Assembly (NCBI GenBank): GCA_963771355.1
Contig: CAVYTA010000003.1
Location: 8,785 to 72,784, forward strand
Source of the DNA: an uncultured Candidatus Rokubacteria bacterium
GTDB taxonomy: Bacteria > Methylomirabilota > Methylomirabilia > Rokubacteriales > CSP1-6
Length of the DNA: 64,000 bases
Direction of reading: 5' to 3'
Below, one piece after another: positions 1,870 through 15,647 of the stretch. A program made the position numbers and the translations under genes. The notes under the pieces were generated by a model. The model was not told the DNA's origin. It worked only from the letters and a program-made list of their open reading frames with translations, and ran no database searches. Numbering within the stretch: the first letter of the stretch is position 1; each line of letters begins with the position of its first letter.

Positions 1870-1940
1870 CTCGGCGGGGCCTTCGGCTCCGACGCCCGGG
1901 CTTCTCGCCCCGCCGCCGCGTCGCCGGTGATCGGCGCCTG

Positions 1941-2184
1941 TCATCGCGCGGGGCCTGACCCCGTTGGGCCCGTCGGCACCAGCGCTCCGGTCATGATCGC
2001 CACCGCCTCGCTCATGCTGACCGCGCGTGGGTCCAGCAACGCCACGCGTTTCCCCAGCCGCGCCACGTGAATCCGGTCCGCGATCTCGAACACGTGCGGC
2101 ATGTCGTTTGAGATCAGCACCACCGACAGTCCCCGGTCGCGAACTCTCCGGATCAGGTCGAGCACCGTGGCGCTCTGCTTGGCC
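1941..2184 (-). pseudogene. 3' remnant of a sugar ABC transporter ATP-binding gene
   Basis: KQSATVLDLIRRVRDRGLSVVLISNDMPHVFEIADRIHVARLG is a sugar-ATPase C-terminus; no Walker A or signature upstream; the H-loop reads SND rather than SHN. Confidence 0.75.
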
Positions 2185-2371
2185 GGTGAAATCGCTCGGG
2201 GTGTACATCAAGAGCACCGCCAGTCTCTTCCAGACGCGGCAAGGCTGGTCGGCGATCCTGGTTGCGTGTGCGCTGGGACTCCTGTTCTACTTCGCGGTGG
2301 CGTTGGCCGAGCACCTGGCCATGCCGTGGGCGAGGGAAAGGGTGAACAGAGGAGGGACTACCCGATGGTGA
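2183..2371 (+). pseudogene. 3' remnant of an ABC permease gene
   Basis: SLGVYIKSTASLFQTRQGWSAILVACALGLLFYFAVALAEHLAMPW is the last TM region of an SsuC-type permease; no 5' part. Confidence 0.7.
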
Positions 2372-3369
2372 AACGATGGCTCCTGTGGATCATGACTGCC
2401 CTGCTCGTTCTCACCCTGCGACCCGATCAGGGGCTGAGTCAGGCTGCCGATAAGGTGACGCTCCAGCTCAAGTGGGTCACCCAGGCTCAGTTTGCTGGCT
2501 ACTACGCGGCGAAGGCCAAAGGCCTCTATGCTGCCGAGAAGCTCGACGTGACCATCCGCCCCGGTGGTCCGGACATCGTGCCCGAGCAGGTCGTGGCTGG
2601 TGGCGGTGCTCAGTTCGGGATCGACTGGCTGCCCAGCCTGCTATCCGCTCGTGACCAGGGCGCGCCACTCGTCAATATCGCCCAGGTGTTCGCCTACAGT
2701 GGTATGCGCGAGATCGCCTTCAAGGCGTCTGGCATCAAAGGCGCTGCTGATCTGAGAGGCCGTCGGGTCGCGGTGTGGTTCGGCGGCAACGAGTTCGAGC
2801 TGCTCGCCACACTCGAGAAGCACAAGATCGACCGGAACAAGGACGTCACCCTGGTGCAGCAGCCGTTCGACATGAACCTGCTGCTCCAGAAGCAGGTCGA
2901 CGCCGCGGCGGCCATGACCTACAACGAGTACAAGCAGGTGCTGGACGCCGGCGTGAAGCCGGACGACCTCGTGGTCATCGACTTCAACAAGGAAGGTACG
3001 GCGATGCTGGAAGACGGGATCTTCGTCAAGGCCGACTGGATCCTCGATGCCAAGAACAAGCAGGTCGCCGCTCGCTTCCTGCGCGCGTCCCTCAAGGGCT
3101 GGGAGCTTTGCAAGGACAAGCCCGGTGAGTGCGTGGAGATCGTTCTGAAGGAGAGCCCCGTGCTCGGCCGCGAGCATCAGACCTGGATGATGACCGAGAT
3201 CAACAAGCTCATCTGGGGGCCGCCGGCGCCCCGGAGCCCGCTCGGCAAGATGGACCCCGCCTCGTTCAAGCAGACGGCCGACATCGCGCTGAAATTCGGC
3301 GTGATCAAGAAGCCCGCCGGCGACGGCGCCTCCACGCACGAGATCTGGGACCTGGCCCAGAAGAAGTAG
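2365..3369 (+). CDS. ABC transporter substrate-binding protein (NMT1/THI5 family)
   Basis: RBS GGAGGG; signal peptide; LQLKWVTQAQFAGYYAA motif. Confidence 0.9.
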   Translation: MVKRWLLWIMTALLVLTLRPDQGLSQAADKVTLQLKWVTQAQFAGYYAAKAKGLYAAEKLDVTIRPGGPDIVPEQVVAGGGAQFGIDWLPSLLSARDQGAPLVNIAQVFAYSGMREIAFKASGIKGAADLRGRRVAVWFGGNEFELLATLEKHKIDRNKDVTLVQQPFDMNLLLQKQVDAAAAMTYNEYKQVLDAGVKPDDLVVIDFNKEGTAMLEDGIFVKADWILDAKNKQVAARFLRASLKGWELCKDKPGECVEIVLKESPVLGREHQTWMMTEINKLIWGPPAPRSPLGKMDPASFKQTADIALKFGVIKKPAGDGASTHEIWDLAQKK

Positions 3370-3411
3370 CCCCCTCGCGGCGAGCGATGACCGCGCTCAC
3401 GACCCTGCGGA

Positions 3412-3750
3412 GTGCCTTTCCTTCAGGATGGAATGGTCTATTTCAAGCGTGGGCAAGGTTACGAAGAGATCGGTGAATTCAGCAAGGCCCAGACCGGCTA
3501 TGGGCACGCCGCGGATCTCATGCCGATGCAAGAGTGGAAGAAACTCGCGGCGCTTGGTGTCAAACGCCTTCACGGAGAAGTGGAAAAGGGCGATCACCGA
3601 GCAGTTGAAGCTCGCGATTGCCTGTTTCCTGGACCGGCTCGCGGGCCCGAAGGCGAAGCGAGTGAGAACTCTAAAGGCAGAACCACGAACGAGCACGCCG
3701 TGGCGTGGGCACCAATTGGGCACCAAACGCAATTCGGGCGCTTCCACTGA
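3412..3750 (+). CDS. hypothetical protein or decayed fragment
   Basis: 112-aa ORF in a lower-GC stretch next to the tRNA-Lys 3' end; no recognisable motif. Confidence 0.3.
   Translation: MPFLQDGMVYFKRGQGYEEIGEFSKAQTGYGHAADLMPMQEWKKLAALGVKRLHGEVEKGDHRAVEARDCLFPGPARGPEGEASENSKGRTTNEHAVAWAPIGHQTQFGRFH
3706..3726. repeat. tandem direct repeat TGGGCACCAA-T-TGGGCACCAA, possible integrase arm-type sites
   Basis: Two exact 10-mers at 3706-3715 and 3717-3726, ~45 bp beyond the tRNA-Lys 3' end. Confidence 0.55.
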
Positions 3751-3766
3751 TCTGGAAGCGCCCGAA
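3733..3766 (-). terminator. intrinsic terminator-like hairpin after the tRNA-His/Arg/Lys cluster
   Basis: Perfect 14-bp stem TTCGGGCGCTTCCA / TGGAAGCGCCCGAA, 6-nt loop, followed by TTGCGTTT on the minus strand. Confidence 0.7.
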
Positions 3767-3771
3767 AGGAT

Positions 3772-3847
<76 letters not shown>

Positions 3848-3949
3848 GTCTCAGTCCCACCAGCGCCGCACGACCACTGCTCACCGCCATGACCGCCGCA
3901 CGACACACCACGAACCGCGGCCGCCGAGTCACCCCGGCGGCCGGAGATT

Positions 3950-4026
3950 TGGTGCGCCCAAGAGGATTCGAACCTCTGACCTTTAGCTCCGGAGGCTAAC
4001 GCTCTATCCAACTGAGCTATGGGCGC
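3950..4026 (-). tRNA. tRNA-Arg(CCG)
   Basis: Anticodon arm TTAGC-CTCCGGA-GCTAA; GTTCGAAT; CCA. Confidence 0.97.
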
Positions 4027-4087
4027 CCGTGCGTTCCTTCTGAACCACGCTTGGCTGATCCGCTCTTGGCTGACCCGTCACCGGGAT

Positions 4088-4165
4088 TGGGGTGACCGAA
4101 GGGAATCGAACCCTCAACCCCTGGCGCCACAGGCCAGTGCTCTAACCAATTGAGCTACGGTCACC
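4088..4165 (-). tRNA. tRNA-His(GTG)
   Basis: Anticodon arm CTGGC-CTGTGGC-GCCAG; G-1; CCA. Confidence 0.96.
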
Positions 4166-4290
4166 ATCCCCGGACGACAGCCGAGACGTCATCTTAGCGT
4201 AGGCCCCAGGGGGAAGCAACCGGGGCGGCCGTGGTACGGTTATATCGTTGGTAGCTCAAGGCGAAATTTACTCAAGGAGGAGTAGCAGTC

Positions 4291-4557
4291 ATGAAGCGCG
4301 AAGGGGTCTCGAGACGGGCGGTGCTGGGGGCGGGCGTGGCGGCGGTGGCGGCGGTGATCGTGCCGGCCCTGGCCCCCCACCCGGCAGTGGCGCAGCAGAA
4401 GGTCAAGCCCGCCATGGTGCAGTACCAGCTGACGCCCAAGAACAAGCAGCAGTGCGACACGTGTCTGCACTGGGTGGCACCGGACCAGTGCAAGATGGTC
4501 GAAGGCAAGATCGTCCCGAAGGGCTGGTGCTCTCTCTACGCGGTGAAGCCCAAGTAA
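4291..4557 (+). CDS. high-potential iron-sulfur protein (HiPIP), Tat-exported
   Basis: RBS AAGGAGGAG; twin-arginine SRRAVL signal ending AVA; YQ..P...QCxxC...C..V.G.I...GWC four-Cys pattern. Confidence 0.9.
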   Translation: MKREGVSRRAVLGAGVAAVAAVIVPALAPHPAVAQQKVKPAMVQYQLTPKNKQQCDTCLHWVAPDQCKMVEGKIVPKGWCSLYAVKPK

Positions 4558-5409
4558 AACGCGCGGAGGCCCTCGGCCGCGCCGCGCAGCGGTGTCGCGA
4601 GCGCGGCCTGGGCCTTTCCTACCCTTAGCCCCCCCTCCAGCGGGCGGGCGGCCTTCTGGGTGAGCTCGGCGGTCTTGACGGGGGTGAGGTGGCTCCCGTC
4701 CAGCCCGAACGTCTCCACCACCAGCTGCGTGAAGGCCCAGCGGTCCAGCGTGTCGGCGCCGGCCACGTGGTAGAGCCCCGTGAGGCCCTGCTCGCAGGCC
4801 TCCACGCTGGCCGCCGCCAGATCGGGCCCATAGGTCGGGACTGGCGCGCTGATCCACGGCGGGGCGGAAGGGGCGCCCCTCGCGGCAGGCGCGGATGAGC
4901 TGGTAGACGAAGTTCTTCTGCTGGGTCTCGGGGCCGTACACCACGCTGGTGCGCAGCACGAGCGCGCGGGGGATGGCGCCGAGGATGGCGCGCTCGGCCT
5001 CGAGCTTGCTCTTCCCGTAGACGTTCAGCGGCCGGGCCTCGTCCTCCTCCCCGAAGGGCCCGCCCTTGCCATCGAAGACATAGTCGCTCGAGTAGTAGAC
5101 GAAGGCCGCGCCCGCCCGCTGGGCCATGCGTCCGAGGAAGAGCGGGGCGTCCCGGTTGAGCGCGAAGGCCTCCTCCGCGTGATCCTCGCAGTAGTCCACG
5201 TGGCTGATGGCCGCCGGGCAGAAGATCCAGTCGGGCTTGACGAAGTGGACGGCGTGCTCCACCGCGTCCGTGTTGCGGATGTCCAGCGGCCAGGCGTCGG
5301 GCACGGCATGGGCCGTGTAGGTGCCGGTGGCCTCGTGCCCGCGGGCGCGCAGCACCTGCATGAGCGCGCCGCCCACCTGGCCCGAGGCGCCGACGACGAG
5401 GGCGCGCAC
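4536..5409 (-). CDS. rmlD: dTDP-4-dehydrorhamnose reductase family SDR, single-base frameshift near 4838
   Basis: GASGQVG, YSSDYVFDG, YGKSK; removing one base restores DQRASPTYGPDLA and joins the 4536..4805 ORF. Confidence 0.8.
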
Positions 5410-7483: not shown

Positions 7484-8230
7484 GTGGCCGAGCCCGCTCT
7501 GCCCGTCCTCGCGGCGCTGGCCGCGGCGGCGGCGCTCGTGCTGGGCTTTCTCAAGACCAGCGTGGGAGGCGGGATCGGGCTCATGCTGACCCCGCTGCTC
7601 ACGTTGATCCTGCCGCCCTCGGCGGTGCTGGGCTTCATCGGGTGCCTGATGGTGCTGTCCGACCCGATCTCTCTACGGCTGTACTGGCGCCAGTGGCATC
7701 CGGGGCTCTTGCGCCGGCTCATCCCCTCTTCGCTCGTGGGCATTGTCCTGGGCGCCTGGCTCCTCGCGGGGCTGTCCGAGGCCGGGCTGCGACGGCTGAT
7801 CGGCGCCGCCGCGCTCCTGATGGCGGGCGTGAGCCTCGTGGGCCTGCTGCGCGCGCACCGGCCGCGCCCCCACTCCTCGCCCGTGGTCAGCGCGGGGGTG
7901 GGCATCGCCGTGGGAGTGGCCTCCGTCGTGGCCAACTCGGGCGGCATCATCCTCGGCCCCTATCTGGCCGGGCTCGGGCTCTCCAATGCCGCGGTGGTCG
8001 GCACGGGCCAGGGCGTGGTGTCCGCGGCCAACGCGCTCAAGCTCGGCGCCTACTGGGCCATCGGCTTCGTGACCCTGAAGCTGGCGCTGCTGGCCATCGT
8101 CATGACCCCGCTCGTCTACCTGGGAAGCCTCGTCGGCTACCGCCTCAATGCGCGGCTGCCGCGGCGGGCGCTGGCGCTGACCCTCATCGCGATCGCCATC
8201 GCGGGCGGCGCGAAGCTCCTGCTGAGCTGA
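7484..8230 (+). CDS. TauE/SafE (TSUP) family membrane exporter
   Basis: About 8 TM helices; GFLKTSVGGGIG and NSGG motifs. Confidence 0.85.
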   Translation: MAEPALPVLAALAAAAALVLGFLKTSVGGGIGLMLTPLLTLILPPSAVLGFIGCLMVLSDPISLRLYWRQWHPGLLRRLIPSSLVGIVLGAWLLAGLSEAGLRRLIGAAALLMAGVSLVGLLRAHRPRPHSSPVVSAGVGIAVGVASVVANSGGIILGPYLAGLGLSNAAVVGTGQGVVSAANALKLGAYWAIGFVTLKLALLAIVMTPLVYLGSLVGYRLNARLPRRALALTLIAIAIAGGAKLLLS

Positions 8231-8344
8231 CCGCGATACATCTGGTCGGCCGCGCGCGCCGATACCATACAACGCGCACGCAAAATCGACGCTTGACGGC
8301 CATGCGCTCCGCCGCGATCCTCACCCTCACGGAGGATACAGACC

Positions 8345-8714
8345 ATGGTGACGATCAAGGACCTCGAGGCATTCGGCGACGGCTGGAACCGGCACGACGT
8401 GGACGCGCTGATGACGTTCATGTCGCCGGACTGCGTGTTCGAGACCAGCGCCGGCCCGGAGGCATGCGGCAAGCGCTATCACGGGCCGCGAGCAGGTGCG
8501 GGAGGCGTTCGCCGGCGTGTTCAAGCGGTTCCCGGACGCGCACTTCGGCAACGCGCGGCACTTCGTGGCCGGTGATCGCGGCGTGTCGGAGTGGCTCTTC
8601 ACCGCCACCACCGCCGACGGCAAGAAGATGGAGGTGAACGGCTGCGACGTGTTCACCTTCGCCGGGGACAAGATCGCGCTGAAGTGCTCTTACTTCAAGA
8701 ACCGGACGGCCTAG
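8345..8714 (+). CDS. SnoaL/NTF2-like protein, single-base frameshift near 8484
   Basis: RBS GGAGGA; WNRHDVDALM...DCVF then EQVREAFAGVF..FPDAHF...GCDVFTF split over two frames. Confidence 0.85.
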
Positions 8715-9402
8715 CGATCTCCGCGAGCAGGTCGGCGAGCGCCTCGGGCGCGGTGACGTTCGGGCTGTGGCTGGCGTCCAGCTCGAAATAGCGCCAGCCC
8801 TCCCGCTTCGCGCGCTCGGCGAATTGCCGGAAGGGGTCGCCGGGCGGCGCGAGCCGGCAGTAGATGTAGCTGCGCGGCAGCGACGTCTCGCCGCGCTTGA
8901 GGCGGAGCGGCTGCTGGAAGGTGCGGAGCGGCTGCGTCATGCGCCGCGGCTCGATCCACGCCACGTCCTCCGGCGCGGTGTCCGGTGGAATGGGATTGGC
9001 CGGCACCCGCCAGCCGTCGGCCGCGTTCTCGACCATGTGCTTGCGGACGCCCTCCGGCATGTAGTCGAGCAGGCAGCGGCCCTCCGCGGGGACGAAGGCG
9101 TCGAGATAGACGACCTGGCGCAGGCGCTCGGGCACGCGGTCGGCCACGCCGGTCGCCACCATGCCGCCGTACGAGTGGCCGATCAGGACGACGTCGCGGA
9201 GGTCCTCATAGTCCAGCATCGCGACCACGTCGCTGACATGCGTCTCGAGGTCCACCGCCGGGCTCGCATGATGCCCGCGATCGCCGAGCCCGGTGAGGGT
9301 CGGCGTATAGAGCTCGTGGCCGCGCGCGCGCAGCAACGGCCGAACTTTTTTCCACGCCCAGGCCGCCGACCACGCACCGTGCGCCAATACGAAGGTCGCC
9401 AC
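8695..9402 (-). CDS. alpha/beta hydrolase (esterase)
   Basis: GGAGG RBS and GTG start; HGAW, nucleophile GHSYGG, LDASH catalytic His. Confidence 0.92.
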   Translation of the reverse strand: MATFVLAHGAWSAAWAWKKVRPLLRARGHELYTPTLTGLGDRGHHASPAVDLETHVSDVVAMLDYEDLRDVVLIGHSYGGMVATGVADRVPERLRQVVYLDAFVPAEGRCLLDYMPEGVRKHMVENAADGWRVPANPIPPDTAPEDVAWIEPRRMTQPLRTFQQPLRLKRGETSLPRSYIYCRLAPPGDPFRQFAERAKREGWRYFELDASHSPNVTAPEALADLLAEIARPSGS

Positions 9403-9493
9403 CCGCTCACCTCCAGTGGATGATCCTCCGTTTGTCGCGTCCCCCTCTCGACAAGTCAAGGGAATCATTGAGAAGCTGGAAGCGGAGGAAGCC

Positions 9494-11380
9494 ATGAAAA
9501 ACGCCAAGCGTCCAATGGATGCGGTGGCCGCGCTGCCCGCCCAGCGCCACGTGACCGTCATCGCCCAGGATCCCAGCGTCCGCGAGAACGGCCCCAACGG
9601 GCCCATCCTCATGGCGAAGATCGCGGTGCCCGCGGAGGATCTCATCCCCGGGCCCATCGGCTACCGCGTGCAGGTCGTGGACTACGACTCCACGACGCGG
9701 CGCTTCAACGGAGCTCACGACCTCCCCGAGAGCCTCAAGGACGAGCCGCCCGGATGGGCGAAGGGCGACGCGAGAATCCTCACCGACTTCCGCTTCCATG
9801 CCCAGAACGTGTACGCGCTGGTCATGAAGACGCTGGCCCGCTTCGAGTTCGCGCTGGGCCGGCGCGTGGGGTGGTCCTTCCACACCCACCAGCTCAAGGT
9901 CTCGCCGCACGGGATGCTGGACGCCAACGCCTTCTATACCCGGCGTGAGGAAGGGCTCGTCTTCGGGTACTTCGCGGGCGAGAGCGGCGAGACCGTGTAC
10001 ACCTGTCTCTCGCACGACATCGTGGTGCACGAGACCACCCATGCCCTGGTCGACGGGCTCCGCGAGCGCTACCTCGACCCGTCCAGCCCCGACCAGGCCG
10101 CCTTTCACGAGGGATTCGCCGACGTCATCGCGATCCTGTCGGTGTTCTCGCAGCCCGAGATGGTGCGCATGCTCCTGGCGCCGCCCACCAAGAAGGGGGG
10201 CGACGCGGCGCTCATCGACCGGGCCGACGTGACGGTGCCCGCGCTCCAGCAAAGCGCGCTGTTCGGGCTGGCGGCACAGATGGGTCAGGAGATCCAGGGC
10301 TCGCGGGGCGGCCCGCTTCGCCAGAGCGCGCAGCTCGTGGCGACACCCCAGCTCCTCGACTCCCCCGAGTTCCAGGAGCCGCACCGGAGAGGCGAGGTGC
10401 TCGTGGCCGCGGTGCTCAATGGCTTCATCAACGTGTGGGCCGCGCGTATCCAGGACCTGGGCGTGCCCGGCCAGCAGTCCTATGCGGTGGCGCGGGTGGC
10501 CGAGCAGGGGGCGGACATCGCCGACACCCTGGCCACGATGTGGATCCGGGCGCTCGACTACATGCCGCCGGTACACCTCGAGTTCGGCGACGCGCTGAGC
10601 GCCGCCTTGACCGCGGACACCGAGGTGCGCCCCGACGACTCCCGCTACGACCTGCGCGAGCACATGCGCAAGGCGTTTCTGATCTATGGCATCGCGCCGC
10701 CGAAATCGGCCGACGCCGCGACGGGCACGTGGGAGCATGCGCCCGGCGGGCTCAACTATGACCGGGTGCGCTTCGAGTCCATGCGGAGCGACAAGGACGA
10801 GGTCTTCCGCTTCCTCTGGGAAAACCGCAAGGATCTCGAGGTCGAGCTGCGGAAGGGGGCGTACACGGAGGTGCTCTCGGTGCGCCCCTGCGTGCGCGTG
10901 GGCCCGGACGGCTTCACCCTCCGCGAGACGGTGGCCGAGTACTATCAGGTCGCCCGCCTCACACCTCCCGAGCTCGAGCGGGCCGGCATCACGGTGCCGA
11001 AGAACTACCTGGTGGCCCTCGCGGAGGCGCGCCGCGCCGCCGCCGAGCGGCAGGCGAAGGCCCGGGAGCGCGCCGACGATGGCGACGCGCCGCCGGCCGG
11101 CGCCGACGACGGGCGCGACGCGGACGACGACGAGAGCCTGGCCACCACCCCCATCTACGGGGGCGGCGTCCTCATCTTCGACGAGTACGGGCGCCTGAAA
11201 TACCACATCCACAACGACGTGTTCCATGCGCGGCGCCAGGCCCGACGGCTGAAATACCTCTGGGAGACGGGCCAGCTCGAGCCGGGGCTGCGCCAGGCGC
11301 GGCTACAGGCGGGCCGCCTCTCGACCCTGCACCGCCTCCGCGCGCTCGACGCGCGGAGAGTTCCCGCGGAAGGCTGGTAG
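9494..11380 (+). CDS. thermolysin-like (M4/gluzincin) zinc metallopeptidase with no signal peptide
   Basis: RBS GGAGG at 9484; NAFY, HETTH (HExxH), HEGFAD (ExxxD third ligand), EPH; long C-terminal extension. Confidence 0.85.
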   Translation: MKNAKRPMDAVAALPAQRHVTVIAQDPSVRENGPNGPILMAKIAVPAEDLIPGPIGYRVQVVDYDSTTRRFNGAHDLPESLKDEPPGWAKGDARILTDFRFHAQNVYALVMKTLARFEFALGRRVGWSFHTHQLKVSPHGMLDANAFYTRREEGLVFGYFAGESGETVYTCLSHDIVVHETTHALVDGLRERYLDPSSPDQAAFHEGFADVIAILSVFSQPEMVRMLLAPPTKKGGDAALIDRADVTVPALQQSALFGLAAQMGQEIQGSRGGPLRQSAQLVATPQLLDSPEFQEPHRRGEVLVAAVLNGFINVWAARIQDLGVPGQQSYAVARVAEQGADIADTLATMWIRALDYMPPVHLEFGDALSAALTADTEVRPDDSRYDLREHMRKAFLIYGIAPPKSADAATGTWEHAPGGLNYDRVRFESMRSDKDEVFRFLWENRKDLEVELRKGAYTEVLSVRPCVRVGPDGFTLRETVAEYYQVARLTPPELERAGITVPKNYLVALAEARRAAAERQAKARERADDGDAPPAGADDGRDADDDESLATTPIYGGGVLIFDEYGRLKYHIHNDVFHARRQARRLKYLWETGQLEPGLRQARLQAGRLSTLHRLRALDARRVPAEGW

Positions 11381-11382
11381 CC

Positions 11383-12720
11383 ATGGCCACCTCGCCGAAG
11401 TCGGTGGAGATCCGCGGCTACCAGGTGGGATTCGGGGACTGCTTCCTGCTCTCGTTCGTCTACTCGGCCACGGACAAGCGCCACGTGCTCATCGACTTCG
11501 GGACCATGGAGCTGCCGACCCGCGGGACGCCGCGCAAGGCGGCCAAGGCCTCCGAGCACATGCCCCAGGTCGCGAGCCACATCGCCAAGGTGTGTGGCGG
11601 CAACCTCACCGCCGTGGTCGCCACCCACCGCCACGCCGATCACATCAGCGGCTTCGGCACGGACGGCAAGACCGGGAAGTCCGGGGAGACGATCCGGGCG
11701 TTGAATCCCAAGGTCGTGCTCCAGCCATGGACGGAGGATCCGCGGGCGGCCAAGAACGCGACCAAGGCCACCAAGGACTCCCTGCGCTCGCCCAAGAGCT
11801 TCGCCGCGGGGCTGACCGCCATGCACAATATCGCCGAGTCCATCTTCCAGCTCGCGCAGAGCCGCCCCGCCTGGATGAGCCCCGCGCTCCAGAAGGAGCT
11901 CCGCTTCCTCGGCATGGACAATATCCACAACAAGTCCGCGGTCGACAATCTGATCGCCATGGGCGAGGCCAAGGGCGCGACGGCGGTGTGGGCGCACCAC
12001 GGCTCGGACTCCGGGCTGGAGAAGCTCCTGCCCGGGGTCAAGGTCCACGTCCTGGGGCCGCCCGATCTCACCCAGACCGAGAAGATCCGGAAGATGCGGC
12101 AAACGGACCCGGATCAGTTCTGGCATCTCCTGGCCGGCCCGAAGTCGCTCCAGACCGCCGAGCCCCTCGCCAAGGGTCTGGCGAGCGGCCGGGCCGCCGA
12201 CCGCCACAGCGTGCCACCCGAGGCCCGCTGGTTCCGCGACCGGCTCGAGCGCCTGCGCGCCGAGCAGCTCCTCCAGATCGTGCGGACGCTGGACGACCAG
12301 ATGAACAATACGAGCCTGATCCTGCTCTTCGAGGTGTTCGGGAAGAAGCTGCTCTTCCCCGGCGACGCCCAGATCGAGAACTGGAGCTACGCGCTGGAGG
12401 ACGCGCCGGACGCCGCCAAGACGCGCGCGCTGCTGGCGGACGTGGACGTCTACAAGGTCGGCCACCACGGGAGCCTCAACGCCACGCCCAAGACGCTCCT
12501 GTGGGAAGACTTCAAGCACCGCAACAAGGCGGGGGCGCAGCGGCTGGTCACCCTGCTCTCGACCATGCCGGGCAAGCACGGGAAGGTGGCGAACAAGACG
12601 GAAGTGCCGCGCCGGCCGCTGCTCGCCGCGCTCAAAGCCGAGACGACGCTGTCGAACACCGTCGATTTGCCCTTCGGGAAGAATCCGACCTTCTGCTATC
12701 AGGTGGACGTCAAGCCCTGA
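11383..12720 (+). CDS. MBL-fold metallo-hydrolase, ComEC/Rec2-like putative nuclease
   Basis: VGFGDC, LIDFG, THRHADH, NNTS, FPGDAQ, KVGHHGS motifs; 2 nt after the peptidase stop. Confidence 0.88.
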   Translation: MATSPKSVEIRGYQVGFGDCFLLSFVYSATDKRHVLIDFGTMELPTRGTPRKAAKASEHMPQVASHIAKVCGGNLTAVVATHRHADHISGFGTDGKTGKSGETIRALNPKVVLQPWTEDPRAAKNATKATKDSLRSPKSFAAGLTAMHNIAESIFQLAQSRPAWMSPALQKELRFLGMDNIHNKSAVDNLIAMGEAKGATAVWAHHGSDSGLEKLLPGVKVHVLGPPDLTQTEKIRKMRQTDPDQFWHLLAGPKSLQTAEPLAKGLASGRAADRHSVPPEARWFRDRLERLRAEQLLQIVRTLDDQMNNTSLILLFEVFGKKLLFPGDAQIENWSYALEDAPDAAKTRALLADVDVYKVGHHGSLNATPKTLLWEDFKHRNKAGAQRLVTLLSTMPGKHGKVANKTEVPRRPLLAALKAETTLSNTVDLPFGKNPTFCYQVDVKP

Positions 12721-12739: not shown

Positions 12740-13561
12740 CTAGACTTCCAGCAGGTCCTCGCCGATGACGACGGGCCCCGCGTAGTCGCGGGCGGCGGCG
12801 GCGCGGAGCTCCTCGGGCACGGAGCCGGGCATGAGGTGACTGACCACCAGGCGGCGGGCCTGGGCGCCGGCGGCCACGCGGCCGAGCTCGGCGGGCGGCG
12901 TGTGATAGGACTGGAGGTCGCGGATCTTCTCCTCCAGCGTGGGCCAGCCGCAGCCGGGAAACCACCCGGTCTTCGTCATCTCGCAGCACTCGTGGATGAG
13001 CACGTCCACCCCGCGGCTCCACTTCATGAGGTTCTCGCAGGGCTTCGTGTCGCCGGACACGACCACGCTGCGCCCGCCGCCCTCGAAGCGATAGCCGAAG
13101 GCGGGCCGCACCGGGTCGTGCTCGACCACGAAGGCGCTCACGGTCACCCCGCCCGTCTCGAGGACCCGGCCCTCCTCGATCTCGGTGACGCGCACCTCGG
13201 GCGGCCGGCGGTCGTGCATGTGGGCGCGGCGGATGTCGATGTCCCAGGCGAGGTAGTCCAGCAGGAGGTCCATCTGACGCCGCGTGCCGGCGGGCCCGTA
13301 CACCTCGAAGGGCGCGTTCTGTCCCACGATCCAGCGCGTGATGAGGAGGTGGCCGAGGTCGATCACGTGGTCGGAGTGGTGATGCGTGATGAACACGGGC
13401 GGCCAGTCATAGGCGCGCACGCCCGCCTGGATGAGCTGGACGCCGACACCCGAGCCCGCGTCCACCAGGAAGCGCCGCTCGCCCAGTGCCAAGAGTGTCG
13501 CCGGCCCGCGGCGCCGGGGATTGGGCGGCGGCGAGCCGGTGCCGAGCAGGACGGCGCGCAA
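12740..13561 (-). CDS. MBL-fold hydrolase (RNase Z/BN, arylsulfatase-like)
   Basis: TTG start with GAGG RBS; LLGTGS, LVDAG, THHHSDH, SGDT, IHE, YHT, SHL. Confidence 0.9.
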   Translation of the reverse strand: MRAVLLGTGSPPPNPRRRGPATLLALGERRFLVDAGSGVGVQLIQAGVRAYDWPPVFITHHHSDHVIDLGHLLITRWIVGQNAPFEVYGPAGTRRQMDLLLDYLAWDIDIRRAHMHDRRPPEVRVTEIEEGRVLETGGVTVSAFVVEHDPVRPAFGYRFEGGGRSVVVSGDTKPCENLMKWSRGVDVLIHECCEMTKTGWFPGCGWPTLEEKIRDLQSYHTPPAELGRVAAGAQARRLVVSHLMPGSVPEELRAAAARDYAGPVVIGEDLLEV

Positions 13562-13568
13562 CCGGGCG

Positions 13569-15647
13569 CTACCTCGTCCCCGCGCCCGGCCCGGGCCGGC
13601 GCGGCTGCGGCTCGAAGCGCTGATCCACCTGCTCGATCCGCTTGCCGCCGGAGAGAAAGAAGCGCGCCACCTGCTCCTGCGCGGCACGCCCGATGTCGGC
13701 GACCTCGGGGAAGGCGGTCCAGGTGAGGAAGCCGTGGGGGTTGCGGAACCGCTCGGGCAGCTTCCCCGCCATCAGCTCGTGGTGGTACACGCTGCTCCAG
13801 AGATAGAGGTCGCCGGCGCGAACCAGGCTGTCCGTGGTCGGGTTGGGCACGGTGCGATCGCCGAGGGCCCACTGCACGAGCACGGCGCGCGGCGGCCCCA
13901 GCGGCGCCTGGACCAGATAGGGCGCGAAGGCCACGGGGTTCGCCGACTGGTTCAGCCATTCCACGCGGTCGAAGAACTCCTGGATCTCCAGCGCGCCCGT
14001 CGCCGGCTGCTTGACCGGAGGCTCGCCGGACAGCGGGATGGACTCGGTGAAGTCCTTCTCGCCGTTCATGAGCGAGGGGTTCCGCAAAGACAGGGCTCTG
14101 ATGACGCCGGGCCGGAAGGCCGGCGCCTGGCGCGCGATCTCGACGATGGGCCCGCCCGGGACGTTCAGGACGCCGATACGGACGCGCGGCTCCACCACCA
14201 TGAGCAAGGTGCCGTAGATGCCGCCGAAGGACTGTCCGAAGTAGTAGATCTGCTCGCGGTCCAGGTCCGGCTGGCGGTCGCCGTCCACGTCGATGCCACG
14301 CCGGATCGCGCGGACGAGCTGCATGAGATCCGCCACCGTCTGCTTGAGCCCATCGCGCGCGGCGACCGTGGCCAGCGGAGTGCCCGGGAGCGTGCTCACG
14401 CCCTCGGCGAGCTCGATCTTACCGTCCTCGTTCCGGTCGATGCCGCGCCCCCCGGAGGGCAGGGTCACCGGCGGCCCGTCCGTGCGCACGAGCGTGAGGG
14501 TGCCTTCCGGCCCGGCGCCGTGGCCCACCACGTTGATCGCGATCGTGGCGAATCCGTTCCGGGCCAGCGTGCCCGCCACCATGGGCGGAATGACGTGCCG
14601 GTCATTGGTGAAGCCGTGGCCGAAGATCGCCACCGGCCAGCCTCCGGGGGGTTTCTGGCCTTCAGGGAGGAAGAGCGTGACGTGGATCTCGTCCTCCGTT
14701 GCCGGCGCGGCCAGCGGCTTCGCCGTGGCCACCGCGGGAATGTGCCCCTCCGCGGAGAGAAAGGACGGGCTCCGGTAGCGGCCGAAGGCGATGGCCTTCA
14801 CCTCGGTGGGCGGCAGCAGATTCAGCGCCAGCGGCACCGACTCGCCCAGGAGCATGCCGCTGGTGGCAACGTGGCGGCGGAGCTCGATCGACTGGAGCCC
14901 GGCGCGCGGATACACCGACGCGCCGCGTCCCGGGGCGAGATCGAAGGTCACCGCGGGCTCCGGCTTCGCCTCCAGCACCGCGCGCATCCGCTCGAGATCC
15001 GCCGTCACCGACTGCGTGGTGAAGAGCGCGAGGGCGGCGATGTCGGCGCGCTTCACGCCGGCGCCCAGCAGGGCGCGCGTGATCCTCGCGTTCACCGCGT
15101 ACGGGTGATCGGTCTCGTCGAGCGGCTTGAGGAGATCCGGCGAGACCCGGAGGCGGCGGCGCTCCGCGTCGGTGACCTTGGTGGTGACCACGAGCACGTA
15201 GAGGCGGCCCTGGAGAAGCGCGCGCTCGGGGCGCGCGTAGAGCACCCGGTGCTCCCCGTTCCAGACGAGCTGCCCCAGCGCGATCGGGGACGTCAGGGGC
15301 TCGGGGACGAGCGGCAGGATGAAGGCCGCCTCGCGGGTGACGCTCTCGACGGTGATGGGCTCGTCGAAGGTGAGCGCGAGGCGGGGGTGCACGGAGAAGC
15401 CGTCGAGCTGGTTGAGCAGGGCGACCTCGTCACAGCCGGAGGGATCCACCGGGCAGCTCGGCTCGGGCAGCACCACGCGGCGGCCCGTGCGCTGGGCGGG
15501 ATCCGCGACGGTGTAGCGGTCGCTGGGAAAGATCGCGATGACCTGAGCGGCCCAGACGGGCGCCCCGGCCGCCGCTTCGATCAGCGCGCAGGCGGCAAGA
15601 GCGAGCCACCGGACGGAGCGACGCCGGAGGAGCGCCCGGAGCGCCAT
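13569..15647 (-). CDS. exported lipase/esterase with Ig-like N-terminal region (Pla-1/VolA-like)
   Basis: Signal peptide; LNQLDGFS; FGHG; GQSFGG nucleophile elbow; GDRTVPN; NPH. Confidence 0.8.
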   Translation of the reverse strand: MALRALLRRRSVRWLALAACALIEAAAGAPVWAAQVIAIFPSDRYTVADPAQRTGRRVVLPEPSCPVDPSGCDEVALLNQLDGFSVHPRLALTFDEPITVESVTREAAFILPLVPEPLTSPIALGQLVWNGEHRVLYARPERALLQGRLYVLVVTTKVTDAERRRLRVSPDLLKPLDETDHPYAVNARITRALLGAGVKRADIAALALFTTQSVTADLERMRAVLEAKPEPAVTFDLAPGRGASVYPRAGLQSIELRRHVATSGMLLGESVPLALNLLPPTEVKAIAFGRYRSPSFLSAEGHIPAVATAKPLAAPATEDEIHVTLFLPEGQKPPGGWPVAIFGHGFTNDRHVIPPMVAGTLARNGFATIAINVVGHGAGPEGTLTLVRTDGPPVTLPSGGRGIDRNEDGKIELAEGVSTLPGTPLATVAARDGLKQTVADLMQLVRAIRRGIDVDGDRQPDLDREQIYYFGQSFGGIYGTLLMVVEPRVRIGVLNVPGGPIVEIARQAPAFRPGVIRALSLRNPSLMNGEKDFTESIPLSGEPPVKQPATGALEIQEFFDRVEWLNQSANPVAFAPYLVQAPLGPPRAVLVQWALGDRTVPNPTTDSLVRAGDLYLWSSVYHHELMAGKLPERFRNPHGFLTWTAFPEVADIGRAAQEQVARFFLSGGKRIEQVDQRFEPQPRRPGPGAGTR

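Follow-up and report, generated by a model that had tools for sequence, protein, structure and literature searches.

By late 2025 the proteolytic licensing of latent nucleases had been described as a widespread logic of bacterial immunity, one that in the published text available for searching is carried out only by serine and cysteine proteases on known sensors. The nucleases with a metallo-beta-lactamase (MBL) fold in Hachiman, AVAST, Lamassu and DRT are presented there as 'gated' pro-enzymes with two disordered insertions (Tuck et al., Science 2025, PMC12799240). Here we describe a two-gene cassette from a 64,000-nucleotide stretch of contig CAVYTA010000003.1 (hereafter the window), belonging to an uncultured Candidatus Rokubacteria bacterium, which pairs a cytoplasmic thermolysin-fold zinc metallopeptidase with a soluble, ComEC-like MBL-fold protein. 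The most economical account of this pair, and in our view probably the right one, is that it forms a gated pro-nuclease module in which the zinc peptidase replaces the serine or cysteine protease.

According to the text of Tuck et al. (PMC12799240), the partner trypsin-like protease cuts HamM at I118/I218 and Avs1a at I134/I234, and Canu (caspase-nuclease) loci follow the same working principle as the trypsin-gated MBLs. The text of Evans et al. (2025, PMC12642450) distinguishes three protease-associated MBL clades, trypsin-like, caspase-like and S8 subtilisin-like, maps MBL cuts at I133 and I232, reports Zn-dependent cleavage of double-stranded DNA, and describes both an alpha/beta-hydrolase zymogen and defence proteases that have no effector. 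As described in these two texts, the characterised protease-MBL pairs all act by cleavage of the MBL. An initial annotation of the window had noted that MBL hydrolases accompany trypsin-like proteases in antiphage systems such as type 1 Avs/AVAST, which matches the published gated pro-nucleases (PMC12799240), and had not recognised the pairing found here as a named system.

We found no name for it in the searchable texts either, literature searches brought up no paper on a defence pairing of metallopeptidase and MBL, and the peptidase family has no name in Pfam, NCBIfam, PADLOC or PHROGs. The main text of PMC12799240 contains none of the words metalloprotease, metallopeptidase, thermolysin, gluzincin or HExxH, and mentions zinc only in the title of a reference; in the text of the preprint 'metallo' occurs solely within metallo-beta-lactamase, and the supplement holding the plasmid tables has no metallopeptidase words. 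The same is true of the searchable text of PMC12642450, and that of 10.64898/2026.01.04.697583 and 10.64898/2026.10.19.760177 holds no such pairing. The mechanism class is already established; what is undescribed in the searchable texts is the metallopeptidase partner and the minimal form in which no sensor is recognisable, though the figures of Tuck et al., which lie outside a text search, might mark such a clade.

Results

A cytoplasmic peptidase with the thermolysin fold

The first protein of the pair is a thermolysin-fold gluzincin. Its catalytic set, noted at the outset as complete, comprises NAFY (residues 145-148), HETTH (179-183), EGFAD (206-210) and EPH (295-297), and each of these motifs is invariant, or close to it, across the family alignments, where H179-E180-x-x-H183, E206-x-x-x-D210, the strand D143-A-N-A-F-Y148 and H297 are conserved family-wide. 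The last residue, W628, is invariant among the 20 sequences of one family alignment and present in 24/30 in another. The initial annotation had also seen neither a signal peptide nor a recognisable propeptide, and both observations stand: the N-terminus is not signal-like, the maximum 19-residue hydropathy is 1.5, and neither an FTP nor a PepSY match was obtained. The protein is acidic (net charge -11) and has no transmembrane segment.

No match to the peptidase was found in Pfam at default thresholds, PADLOC, NCBIfam or PHROGs, and the sequence search of the PDB gave chance matches only. When the Pfam search was relaxed to E <= 10 the only match was a sub-threshold one to Peptidase_M4 (PF01447), with none to PF02868. 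Relatives are abundant, with 5,395 proteins at E <= 0.001 among 8,000 candidates examined, the best 120 of which are at least 61% identical and come from several phyla. Searched with a profile, 1.84 billion cluster representatives yielded at least 4,397 relatives at E <= 0.001, and 1,208 at E <= 1e-30. Where their source names them, they are called 'hypothetical protein'.

A soluble ComEC-like MBL protein with two insertions

All five motifs of the ComEC-type set listed in the initial annotation are present in the second protein (GDC at residues 18-20, THRHADH at 81-87, NNTS at 308-311, GDA at 327-329 and GHHGS at 360-364) and are conserved in the family alignment, in which D19, H82/H84/D86/H87, N308, D328 and H361/H362 are invariant. 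It had been described as Lys-rich and free of transmembrane and signal sequences; we saw neither of these (maximum 19-residue hydropathy 1.1), and the lysine content is 7.6%, with a net charge of +14.

Pfam produced only a marginal Lactamase_B match, and PADLOC matched the LmuA-type MBL model (PDLC03854) at 2e-18 over residues 8-373, with further matches to Avs1a (1e-8), an RT-associated MBL and PDC-M48B. The NCBIfam matches, to Avs1a and 6A-MBL, lay far under their cut-offs, and the Avs1a equivalog (NF041809) aligned with residues 292-373 only. For the structural model (pLDDT 73.8) the top Foldseek match was the ComEC nuclease domain 9ic4, with a TM score of 0.70 on the target, followed at ranks 2-4 by the choline esterase Pce; the family profile likewise found the ComEC competence nuclease domain 9ic4 as its best solved relative. 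These matches support placing the protein among the defence-type ComEC-like MBL effectors, whose models it matches weakly.

The alignment with the 9ic4 chain joins residues 16-90 and 304-363 of the MBL to 9-78 and 149-200, and the ~214 residues lying between (90-304) correspond to ~71 residues in ComEC. Within this region are two insertions (124-137 and 238-275), near the cut sites given in the texts of the two 2025 papers (I118/I218, I134/I234 and I133/I232). Both loops vary in sequence, and loop 2 also in length; an aromatic residue stands at F139, after loop 1, in 25/28 sequences (23 Phe, 2 Tyr). By alignment, the insertions fall at the same two positions in the CHAT-associated MBLs of two other loci (L046 and L047), at 19-23% identity. 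A genuine Avs1a was sought in 400 gammaproteobacterial genomes, which gave three sub-threshold matches, either CHAT-associated or unclear.

The peptidase and the MBL are inherited as a unit

The pairing of the two genes is near-obligate. We compared 39 genome loci, all from metagenome-assembled genomes (MAGs) labelled as Methylomirabilota/Rokubacteria, Acidobacteriota, Gemmatimonadota, Pseudomonadota, Planctomycetota, Myxococcota and Cytophagia, and in 37 of them an MBL homologue starts ~5-170 nt downstream of the peptidase. The two exceptions are L039, which stops at a contig edge, and L038, which is 36% identical and has no MBL. When all open reading frames (ORFs) of the 39 loci were clustered no third gene common to all emerged, the neighbours being subclade-specific. 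Counting co-occurrence had been proposed with the initial annotation, and the pair was recovered in these 37 MAG loci, in all four plasmids inspected and in each of the nine genomes of the window's order that have a close full-length peptidase, the window's own included.

Within that order peptidase matches occur in 24/183 genomes (13/77 high-quality ones) and MBL matches in 12/183, and two of the seven other genomes of the genus have a peptidase match; the window's genome carries a single copy. A further, distant peptidase-MBL pair is present in G045, G058 has an MBL match at a contig start, and G156 a weak partial MBL match without a peptidase. The remaining 14 order genomes contain distant catalytic-domain paralogues only, and no MBL.

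The pairwise distances of the two proteins correlate closely (r = 0.93 over 28 loci, a value as high in 0/2000 permutations), which shows that the genes are inherited and transferred as a unit and does not by itself imply functional co-evolution. The two proteins are also joined naturally: in the fusion P0143 (1,271 aa) the peptidase is followed by an MBL 48% identical to that of the window. In P0225 an nSTAND1 domain is followed by the peptidase catalytic domain only, and in other fusions Amidase_3 or Zn phospholipase C lies in front of the peptidase.

Several observations on the wider family are recorded here. The whole thermolysin-like module is duplicated in tandem in at least nine relatives of ~1,000-1,200 aa (P0170, P0172, P0181, P0185, P0186, P0189, P0198, P0212 and P0222). 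In an Acidobacteriota MAG (L026) two copies of the pair, at 1894-5014 and 8165-10628, lie ~3 kb apart, with a phosphoesterase (PF04185) gene and another ORF between them. Broken copies occur at G113:C19:423045-426308, which has in-frame TGA stops, and in L003, L010 and L034, which match piecewise across frames; either the copies are decaying or the MAGs were misassembled there. One locus, L001 (DASRWT010000048.1), is labelled as a Nitrosocosmicus (archaeal) MAG. Its GC content is, however, 72%, it shares synteny and, for both proteins, 90% identity with the window, and it is probably a mis-binned bacterial contig. Distant peptidase paralogues (31-35% identity in the catalytic domain) were seen in other multi-protease settings, at L053:3973-8705, L054:3577-6710, L055:4071-7224 and L056:3403-6954. 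One of these four is fused behind an S8 subtilase, one lies beside an Amidase_2-caspase fusion and two lie beside M43 peptidases. Plasmid matches annotated as 'S8 family serine peptidase' may represent the same S8-peptidase fusion.

The complex model points to binding through the second insertion

Complex modelling, another suggestion of the initial annotation, was done with family alignments on the cognate pair of L021, whose proteins are ~51% identical to those of the window (1,073 residues as a pair). The L021 complex passed its controls, with an ipSAE of 0.79 against 0.00 for the best control; this mark is reached by 116/157 solved complexes and 2/215 mismatched pairs, counts that are only approximate with custom alignments. 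The runs share at least 56% of contacts, and the partner pLDDT is at least 78. On the MBL the interface comprises, in window numbering, residues 256-260 and 272-295, where loop 2 ends and the conserved helix with P278, F284, R287 and L288 follows, as well as K370 and L413. On the peptidase it comprises the N-terminal sheet (Y64, D143, F160 and their neighbours) beside the DANAFY substrate strand, together with the C-terminal Trp. The model supports binding of the peptidase to the MBL through the latter's non-catalytic insertion 2, and speaks to binding only, not to cleavage.

The pair could also be a conflict module wired in another way, its peptidase attacking a phage or host protein directly, as the Lit protease does in cutting EF-Tu, or degrading an inhibitor, while the MBL would not be its substrate but a parallel effector or regulator. 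That no MBL loop sits at the zinc site of the model would suit this arrangement, as would the MBL-less distant paralogues of the 14 order genomes and the effector-less defence proteases mentioned in the text of PMC12642450. We nevertheless hold it to be rather unlikely, since close orthologues were never found without an MBL (9/9 genomes, 37/39 loci and 4/4 plasmids), the predicted interface uses precisely the non-catalytic MBL insertion, and the characterised pairs in the texts of PMC12799240 and PMC12642450 all cleave their MBL.

Genomic neighbourhoods and mobility

Within ~15 kb of the pair the window holds an ABC transporter, TauE, a split SnoaL gene, an alpha/beta hydrolase, a second MBL-fold gene, HtrA, RecR and DnaX. 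No integrase or transposase was found in this range, there are no flanking repeats, and scans of repeats and tRNA genes gave no mark of a mobile element. A Lamassu assignment would call for the SMC-like ATPase LmuB (and LmuC) beside the LmuA-type effector; no SMC-like ATPase adjoins the window pair, and none is conserved across the 39 loci. An empty insertion site was also sought in five same-genus genomes lacking the pair, where the flanking genes are non-adjacent or have no close orthologues, and no site could be defined.

For the 39 loci we scanned 131 neighbouring ORFs, taking on either side of each locus the two closest of the 230 ORFs that fall within ~4.5 kb. By Pfam they are mostly metabolic. 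PADLOC identified one genuine defence gene among them, a Septu PtuA/B fusion directly downstream of the pair in L016, its other matches being HtrA-like proteases and a DEAD-box helicase found through generic models. Enrichment near defence genes had been proposed as a check on the initial annotation, and the outcome is divided: the defence-island context is clear on rhizobial plasmids and absent in most MAG loci and in the window.

The metabolic surroundings of the window and of most MAG loci, where a defence gene is adjacent in only one of the 39, would fit a pair of ordinary metabolic or turnover enzymes, uninvolved in conflict, that sequentially hydrolyse a shared substrate other than nucleic acid, such as a peptide-phosphodiester compound or some component of the envelope. 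The high sequence conservation across phyla and the presence of phosphodiesterases such as Pce among MBL folds point the same way. Such a duo is improbable, however: the genes are patchy even within the genus and are plasmid-borne, the closest fold and profile matches of the MBL are the ComEC nuclease and defence effectors, its insertions appear disordered and one of them forms a predicted protein-protein interface, fusions with STAND and with the MBL exist, and several genomes carry broken copies, as expected of costly accessory genes.

Degradative enzymes recur as same-strand neighbours. They include a Tle1-like DUF2235 lipase (L016), a phosphoesterase (L017 and L026), a patatin (L032 and L036, with homologues in L031, L037 and L009), NlpC/P60 (L002 and L010), Amidase_2 (L024) and astacin (L030-32 and L039); Trypco1 lies upstream in L017. 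M4 and M36 peptidases are normally secreted, and the activities of the adjacent or fused partners (DUF2235 lipase, patatin, phosphoesterase, NlpC/P60, Amidase_2, Amidase_3 and Zn phospholipase C) are of a kind typical of antibacterial effectors, which raises the possibility of an exported arsenal, with peptidase, nuclease, lipases and cell-wall hydrolases leaving by a non-classical route (for instance type VI secretion or vesicles) to hit competitors or prey instead of the producer. We give this little credence. Neither protein has a signal peptide or transmembrane segment, and no Hcp, VgrG, PAAR or immunity-like genes were seen among the 131 flanking ORFs scanned. The two gating-type insertions of the MBL, the STAND fusion of one relative and the specific heterodimer predicted for peptidase and MBL also argue against export, and the DUF2235 and MBL arrangement recurs with a CHAT protease in a Canu-like locus.

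The peptidase is encoded on 37 plasmid records, 21 of them predicted to be conjugative, and the MBL follows it in each of the four plasmids that were inspected. On pRphaN671d of Rhizobium phaseoli the peptidase, MBL and DUF2235 genes form an overlapping operon whose neighbours are a CBASS cyclase operon, a WYL protein, a UvrD-helicase/ATP-binding pair and a SAV_2336-NTD protein; on pAvCG78b of Agrobacterium vitis these three genes have PD-(D/E)XK/UvrD genes on one side and a gene for a large DEAD/DEAH helicase on the other. A plasmid of Rhizobium gallicum carries two paralogous sets, and on a 41-kb plasmid of Isosphaeraceae an HTH regulator gene overlaps the start of the peptidase gene. Phages gave a single partial match (34% identity) in 50,697 records, which offers no evidence that a version is carried by phages. 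The patchy distribution of the peptidase (24/183 order genomes and 2/7 other genus genomes) and its presence on plasmids are the behaviour of an accessory, mobile pair, in favour of a gated pro-nuclease module.

Plasmid carriage, the HTH regulator adjoining the pair on the 41-kb plasmid and the compact two-gene unit, with ORFs that overlap or abut, would also be compatible with a toxin-antitoxin-like addiction module that stabilises plasmids and genomic islands instead of defending against phages, the latent nuclease being freed upon loss of the element. This is very unlikely: most copies are chromosomal and in non-mobile contexts, and the sequences give no hint of a labile antitoxin. An abortive-infection role and addiction are, besides, not mutually exclusive.

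Gene layout and features of the window

The features of the pair are collected in Table 1. The longest peptidase ORF spans 9416..11380 (+), with candidate starts at GTG 9416 and ATG 9494; the latter is preferred because of the GGAGGA upstream of it. Direct reading of the junction gave the peptidase stop codon TAG at 11378-11380, then 'cc', then the MBL ATG at 11383, which confirms the 2-nt spacing reported initially. Translation of the MBL is likely coupled to that of the peptidase through the GGAAGG inside the peptidase gene. Scans for promoters and terminators returned 0 sites each. ARAGORN called a 92-nt 'tRNA-Asp (atc)' at 11026-11117 (-), within the peptidase ORF and opposite the region coding for the acidic linker, which is most likely a false positive.

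The initial annotation had placed this plus-strand pair between minus-strand housekeeping genes. The orientation was right, the upstream flank being an alpha/beta hydrolase gene (8695-9351) and the downstream flank a Lactamase_B_2 protein gene (12740-13687), both on the minus strand; the housekeeping label was overstated, as the flanks are not neighbours in the five same-genus genomes without the pair.

Table 1. Positions of the peptidase-MBL pair and its features in the window.
Feature	Position	Strand	Remark
Peptidase gene, 628 aa; cytoplasmic thermolysin-fold zinc metallopeptidase (unnamed family)	9494..11380	+	
MBL gene, 445 aa; soluble basic ComEC-like MBL-fold hydrolase (predicted gated pro-DNase)	11383..12720	+	
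Shine-Dalgarno-like GGAGGA	9484..9489	+	4 nt 5' of peptidase ATG; read directly
Shine-Dalgarno-like GGAAGG	11368..11373	+	Within the end of the peptidase gene, 9 nt 5' of MBL ATG; read directly
Peptidase catalytic domain, aa 17-410; complete two-lobed M4/M36 fold	9542..10723	+	
Peptidase zinc site, H179-E180-x-x-H183 and E206-x-x-x-D210; gluzincin signature, family-invariant	10028..10123	+	Family alignments
Peptidase C-terminal domain, aa 415-628, with acidic disordered linker (aa 529-549) and C-terminal Trp	10736..11377	+	
MBL motif 2, H82-R-H84-A-D86-H87; metal ligands	11626..11643	+	Invariant in family alignment
MBL insertion loop 1, aa 124-137; low model confidence, variable sequence	11752..11793	+	
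MBL insertion loop 2, aa 238-275; low confidence, indel-rich, semi-conserved L-[A/F]-x-G	12094..12207	+	
MBL conserved post-loop-2 helix, aa 278-295 (invariant P278; F284, R287, L288); predicted to dock on peptidase	12214..12267	+	

Three further features of the window were noted. The gene at 12740-13687 (-) is a second, unrelated MBL-fold gene (Lactamase_B_2, 5.9e-22). L034 has a homologue of it in the corresponding place (10246-11010), the other loci do not conserve it, and it is probably a mere neighbour. Two overlapping ORFs in different frames, 8345-8575 (+) and 8496-8714 (+), match the N- and C-terminal halves of SnoaL_2 and look like a single SnoaL-like gene that a frameshift has broken in two; orthologues of 122 aa that are intact occur at L003:5875-6243 and L034:5852-6220. 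A tRNA-Lys/Arg/His cluster at 3772-4164 (-) coincides with a GC dip at ~2-4.5 kb.

Discussion

The initial annotation proposed a two-component conflict or abortive-infection module in which a zinc peptidase replaces trypsin and unlocks an MBL nuclease. Every part of this proposal that can be checked in silico held. The analysis shows the folds, the intact catalytic sets, the two insertions, the near-obligate linkage, the joint horizontal spread, a natural fusion and a controlled complex model. From these we infer the function, namely that the MBL is cleaved, acts as a DNase and, upon a trigger, works against phages. In the proposed mechanism the MBL would be a ComEC-like, zinc-dependent DNase kept latent by its two inserted loops, and the cytoplasmic zinc peptidase would bind it through the second of them. 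Once triggered, the peptidase would cut the MBL loops, and the cleaved MBL would degrade DNA indiscriminately, killing or arresting the infected cell (abortive infection). The C-terminal domain of the peptidase is the most likely regulator, a candidate because a STAND NTPase takes its place in the fused P0225.

Several findings weigh against a gated pro-nuclease module. Peptidase identity above 60% across phyla is unusually high for a defence gene, the genes within ~15 kb in the window are metabolic or housekeeping with no defence-island signal, and a known defence gene is among the nearest four ORFs in only one of the 39 MAG loci. Neither protein reaches the cut-off of a curated family (Avs1a, 41.8 against 420 bits; Peptidase_M4, 16.4 against 22.4 bits). 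The window peptidase and its neighbours contain no recognisable sensor domain, unlike all characterised relatives. Correlated distance matrices are expected for any co-inherited neighbours, and the complex model comes from a homologous pair at 51% identity, not from the window's own, with the zinc ligands outside the confident contacts and hence no scissile bond positioned at the active site.

Lipases and phospholipases recur beside the pair, and L047 has DUF2235 and an MBL arranged likewise next to a CHAT protease, which suggests that the effectors licensed by the peptidase may number more than one. In some loci the co-encoded degradative enzymes (the DUF2235/Tle1-like lipase, the patatin, the phosphoesterase) might be licensed by the same enzyme as the MBL. 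A bolder version, possible though we think it doubtful, would make the thermolysin-fold peptidase both sensor and executioner hub, a bacterial 'metallo-caspase' held inactive by its C-terminal propeptide-like domain, freed when a phage cue displaces this domain or takes it away, and then licensing whichever latent effectors lie beside it, be they the gated MBL DNase, the DUF2235 lipase, the patatin, the phosphoesterase or cell-wall amidases. If this were true, the relatives fused to S8 subtilases or lying beside caspases would be true protease cascades, and the family would give the proteolytic immunity of prokaryotes a fourth class of protease, a sensor-autonomous one.

Under the simpler account of a gated pro-nuclease module the family would still add a zinc metallopeptidase class to proteolytic licensing, with at least 4,397 cluster representatives at the threshold given above. 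The minimal two-gene form, in which no sensor is recognisable, raises the question of how a cytoplasmic thermolysin-type enzyme is kept silent and by what it is activated. Soil phyla that are under-studied and in which current defence catalogues find little (Methylomirabilota, Acidobacteriota, Gemmatimonadota and Planctomycetota) commonly carry the family, and its presence on plasmids of cultured rhizobia makes it testable at the bench.

Comparison with known systems

Each protein shares a core with a well-known family and departs from it in architecture. The peptidase has the HExxH motif, the downstream ExxxD glutamate ligand and the two-lobe fold by which thermolysin (M4) is defined; it falls short of the Pfam gathering score and is not a secreted pre-pro-enzyme. 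Its sequence identity to thermolysin and fungalysin (M36) is just 12-17%, and whereas those enzymes are secreted it is cytoplasmic, with an extra C-terminal domain of ~210 aa in place of their N-terminal FTP/PepSY propeptide. The MBL likewise shares the GD, HxHxDH, NxxS, GD and HHGS motifs of ComEC/Rec2, but ComEC is an integral membrane DNA-uptake channel, whereas the window MBL is a soluble protein with neither the channel nor the OB domains and with two insertions that add ~140 residues. Against the ComEC model TIGR00361 it scores 13 bits, well below the cut-off of 190, and lies outside that family.

The closest parallel is with the HamMAB, Avs1, Avs2/Avs4-MBL, Lamassu and DRT modules as their published texts describe them. 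Both sides have a ComEC-like MBL with two insertions at equivalent positions, disordered in those modules and of low model confidence in the window, an obligate link to a protease, joint evolution and horizontal spread, and a predicted protease-MBL contact through an insertion. They differ in the protease, a serine enzyme there and a thermolysin-fold zinc metallopeptidase in the window, which fits none of the three reported partner classes (trypsin-like, caspase-like and S8). The gene order is reversed, with the MBL upstream of the protease in those modules and downstream in the window, and the window insertions are longer and have no conserved isoleucine cut sites. A sensor (STAND, HamAB, Lamassu, RT or others) is fused to or accompanies the known modules, while the window peptidase has no known sensor, nSTAND1 being found only in P0225.

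Canu (CanABC), again as described in text, is a further parallel. Its protease is a cysteine caspase/CHAT enzyme rather than a metallopeptidase, and the window pair lacks a CanB-like partner as well as Ig-like and TPR domains, with CHAT-associated MBLs only 19-23% identical to its own. In both, the protease is of a non-trypsin type and the nuclease is encoded downstream of it, and Canu loci, like those of the pair described here, are small and variable, with extra genes of unknown role. In the gammaproteobacterial locus L047:2-3719 (-) consecutive genes for a Tle1-like DUF2235 lipase, an Avs1a-like MBL and a CHAT protease make up a Canu-like triad. The peptidase-MBL-DUF2235 operons on the rhizobial plasmids are mirrored in it, and DUF2235 stands beside the MBL in several of the thermolysin-type loci as well.

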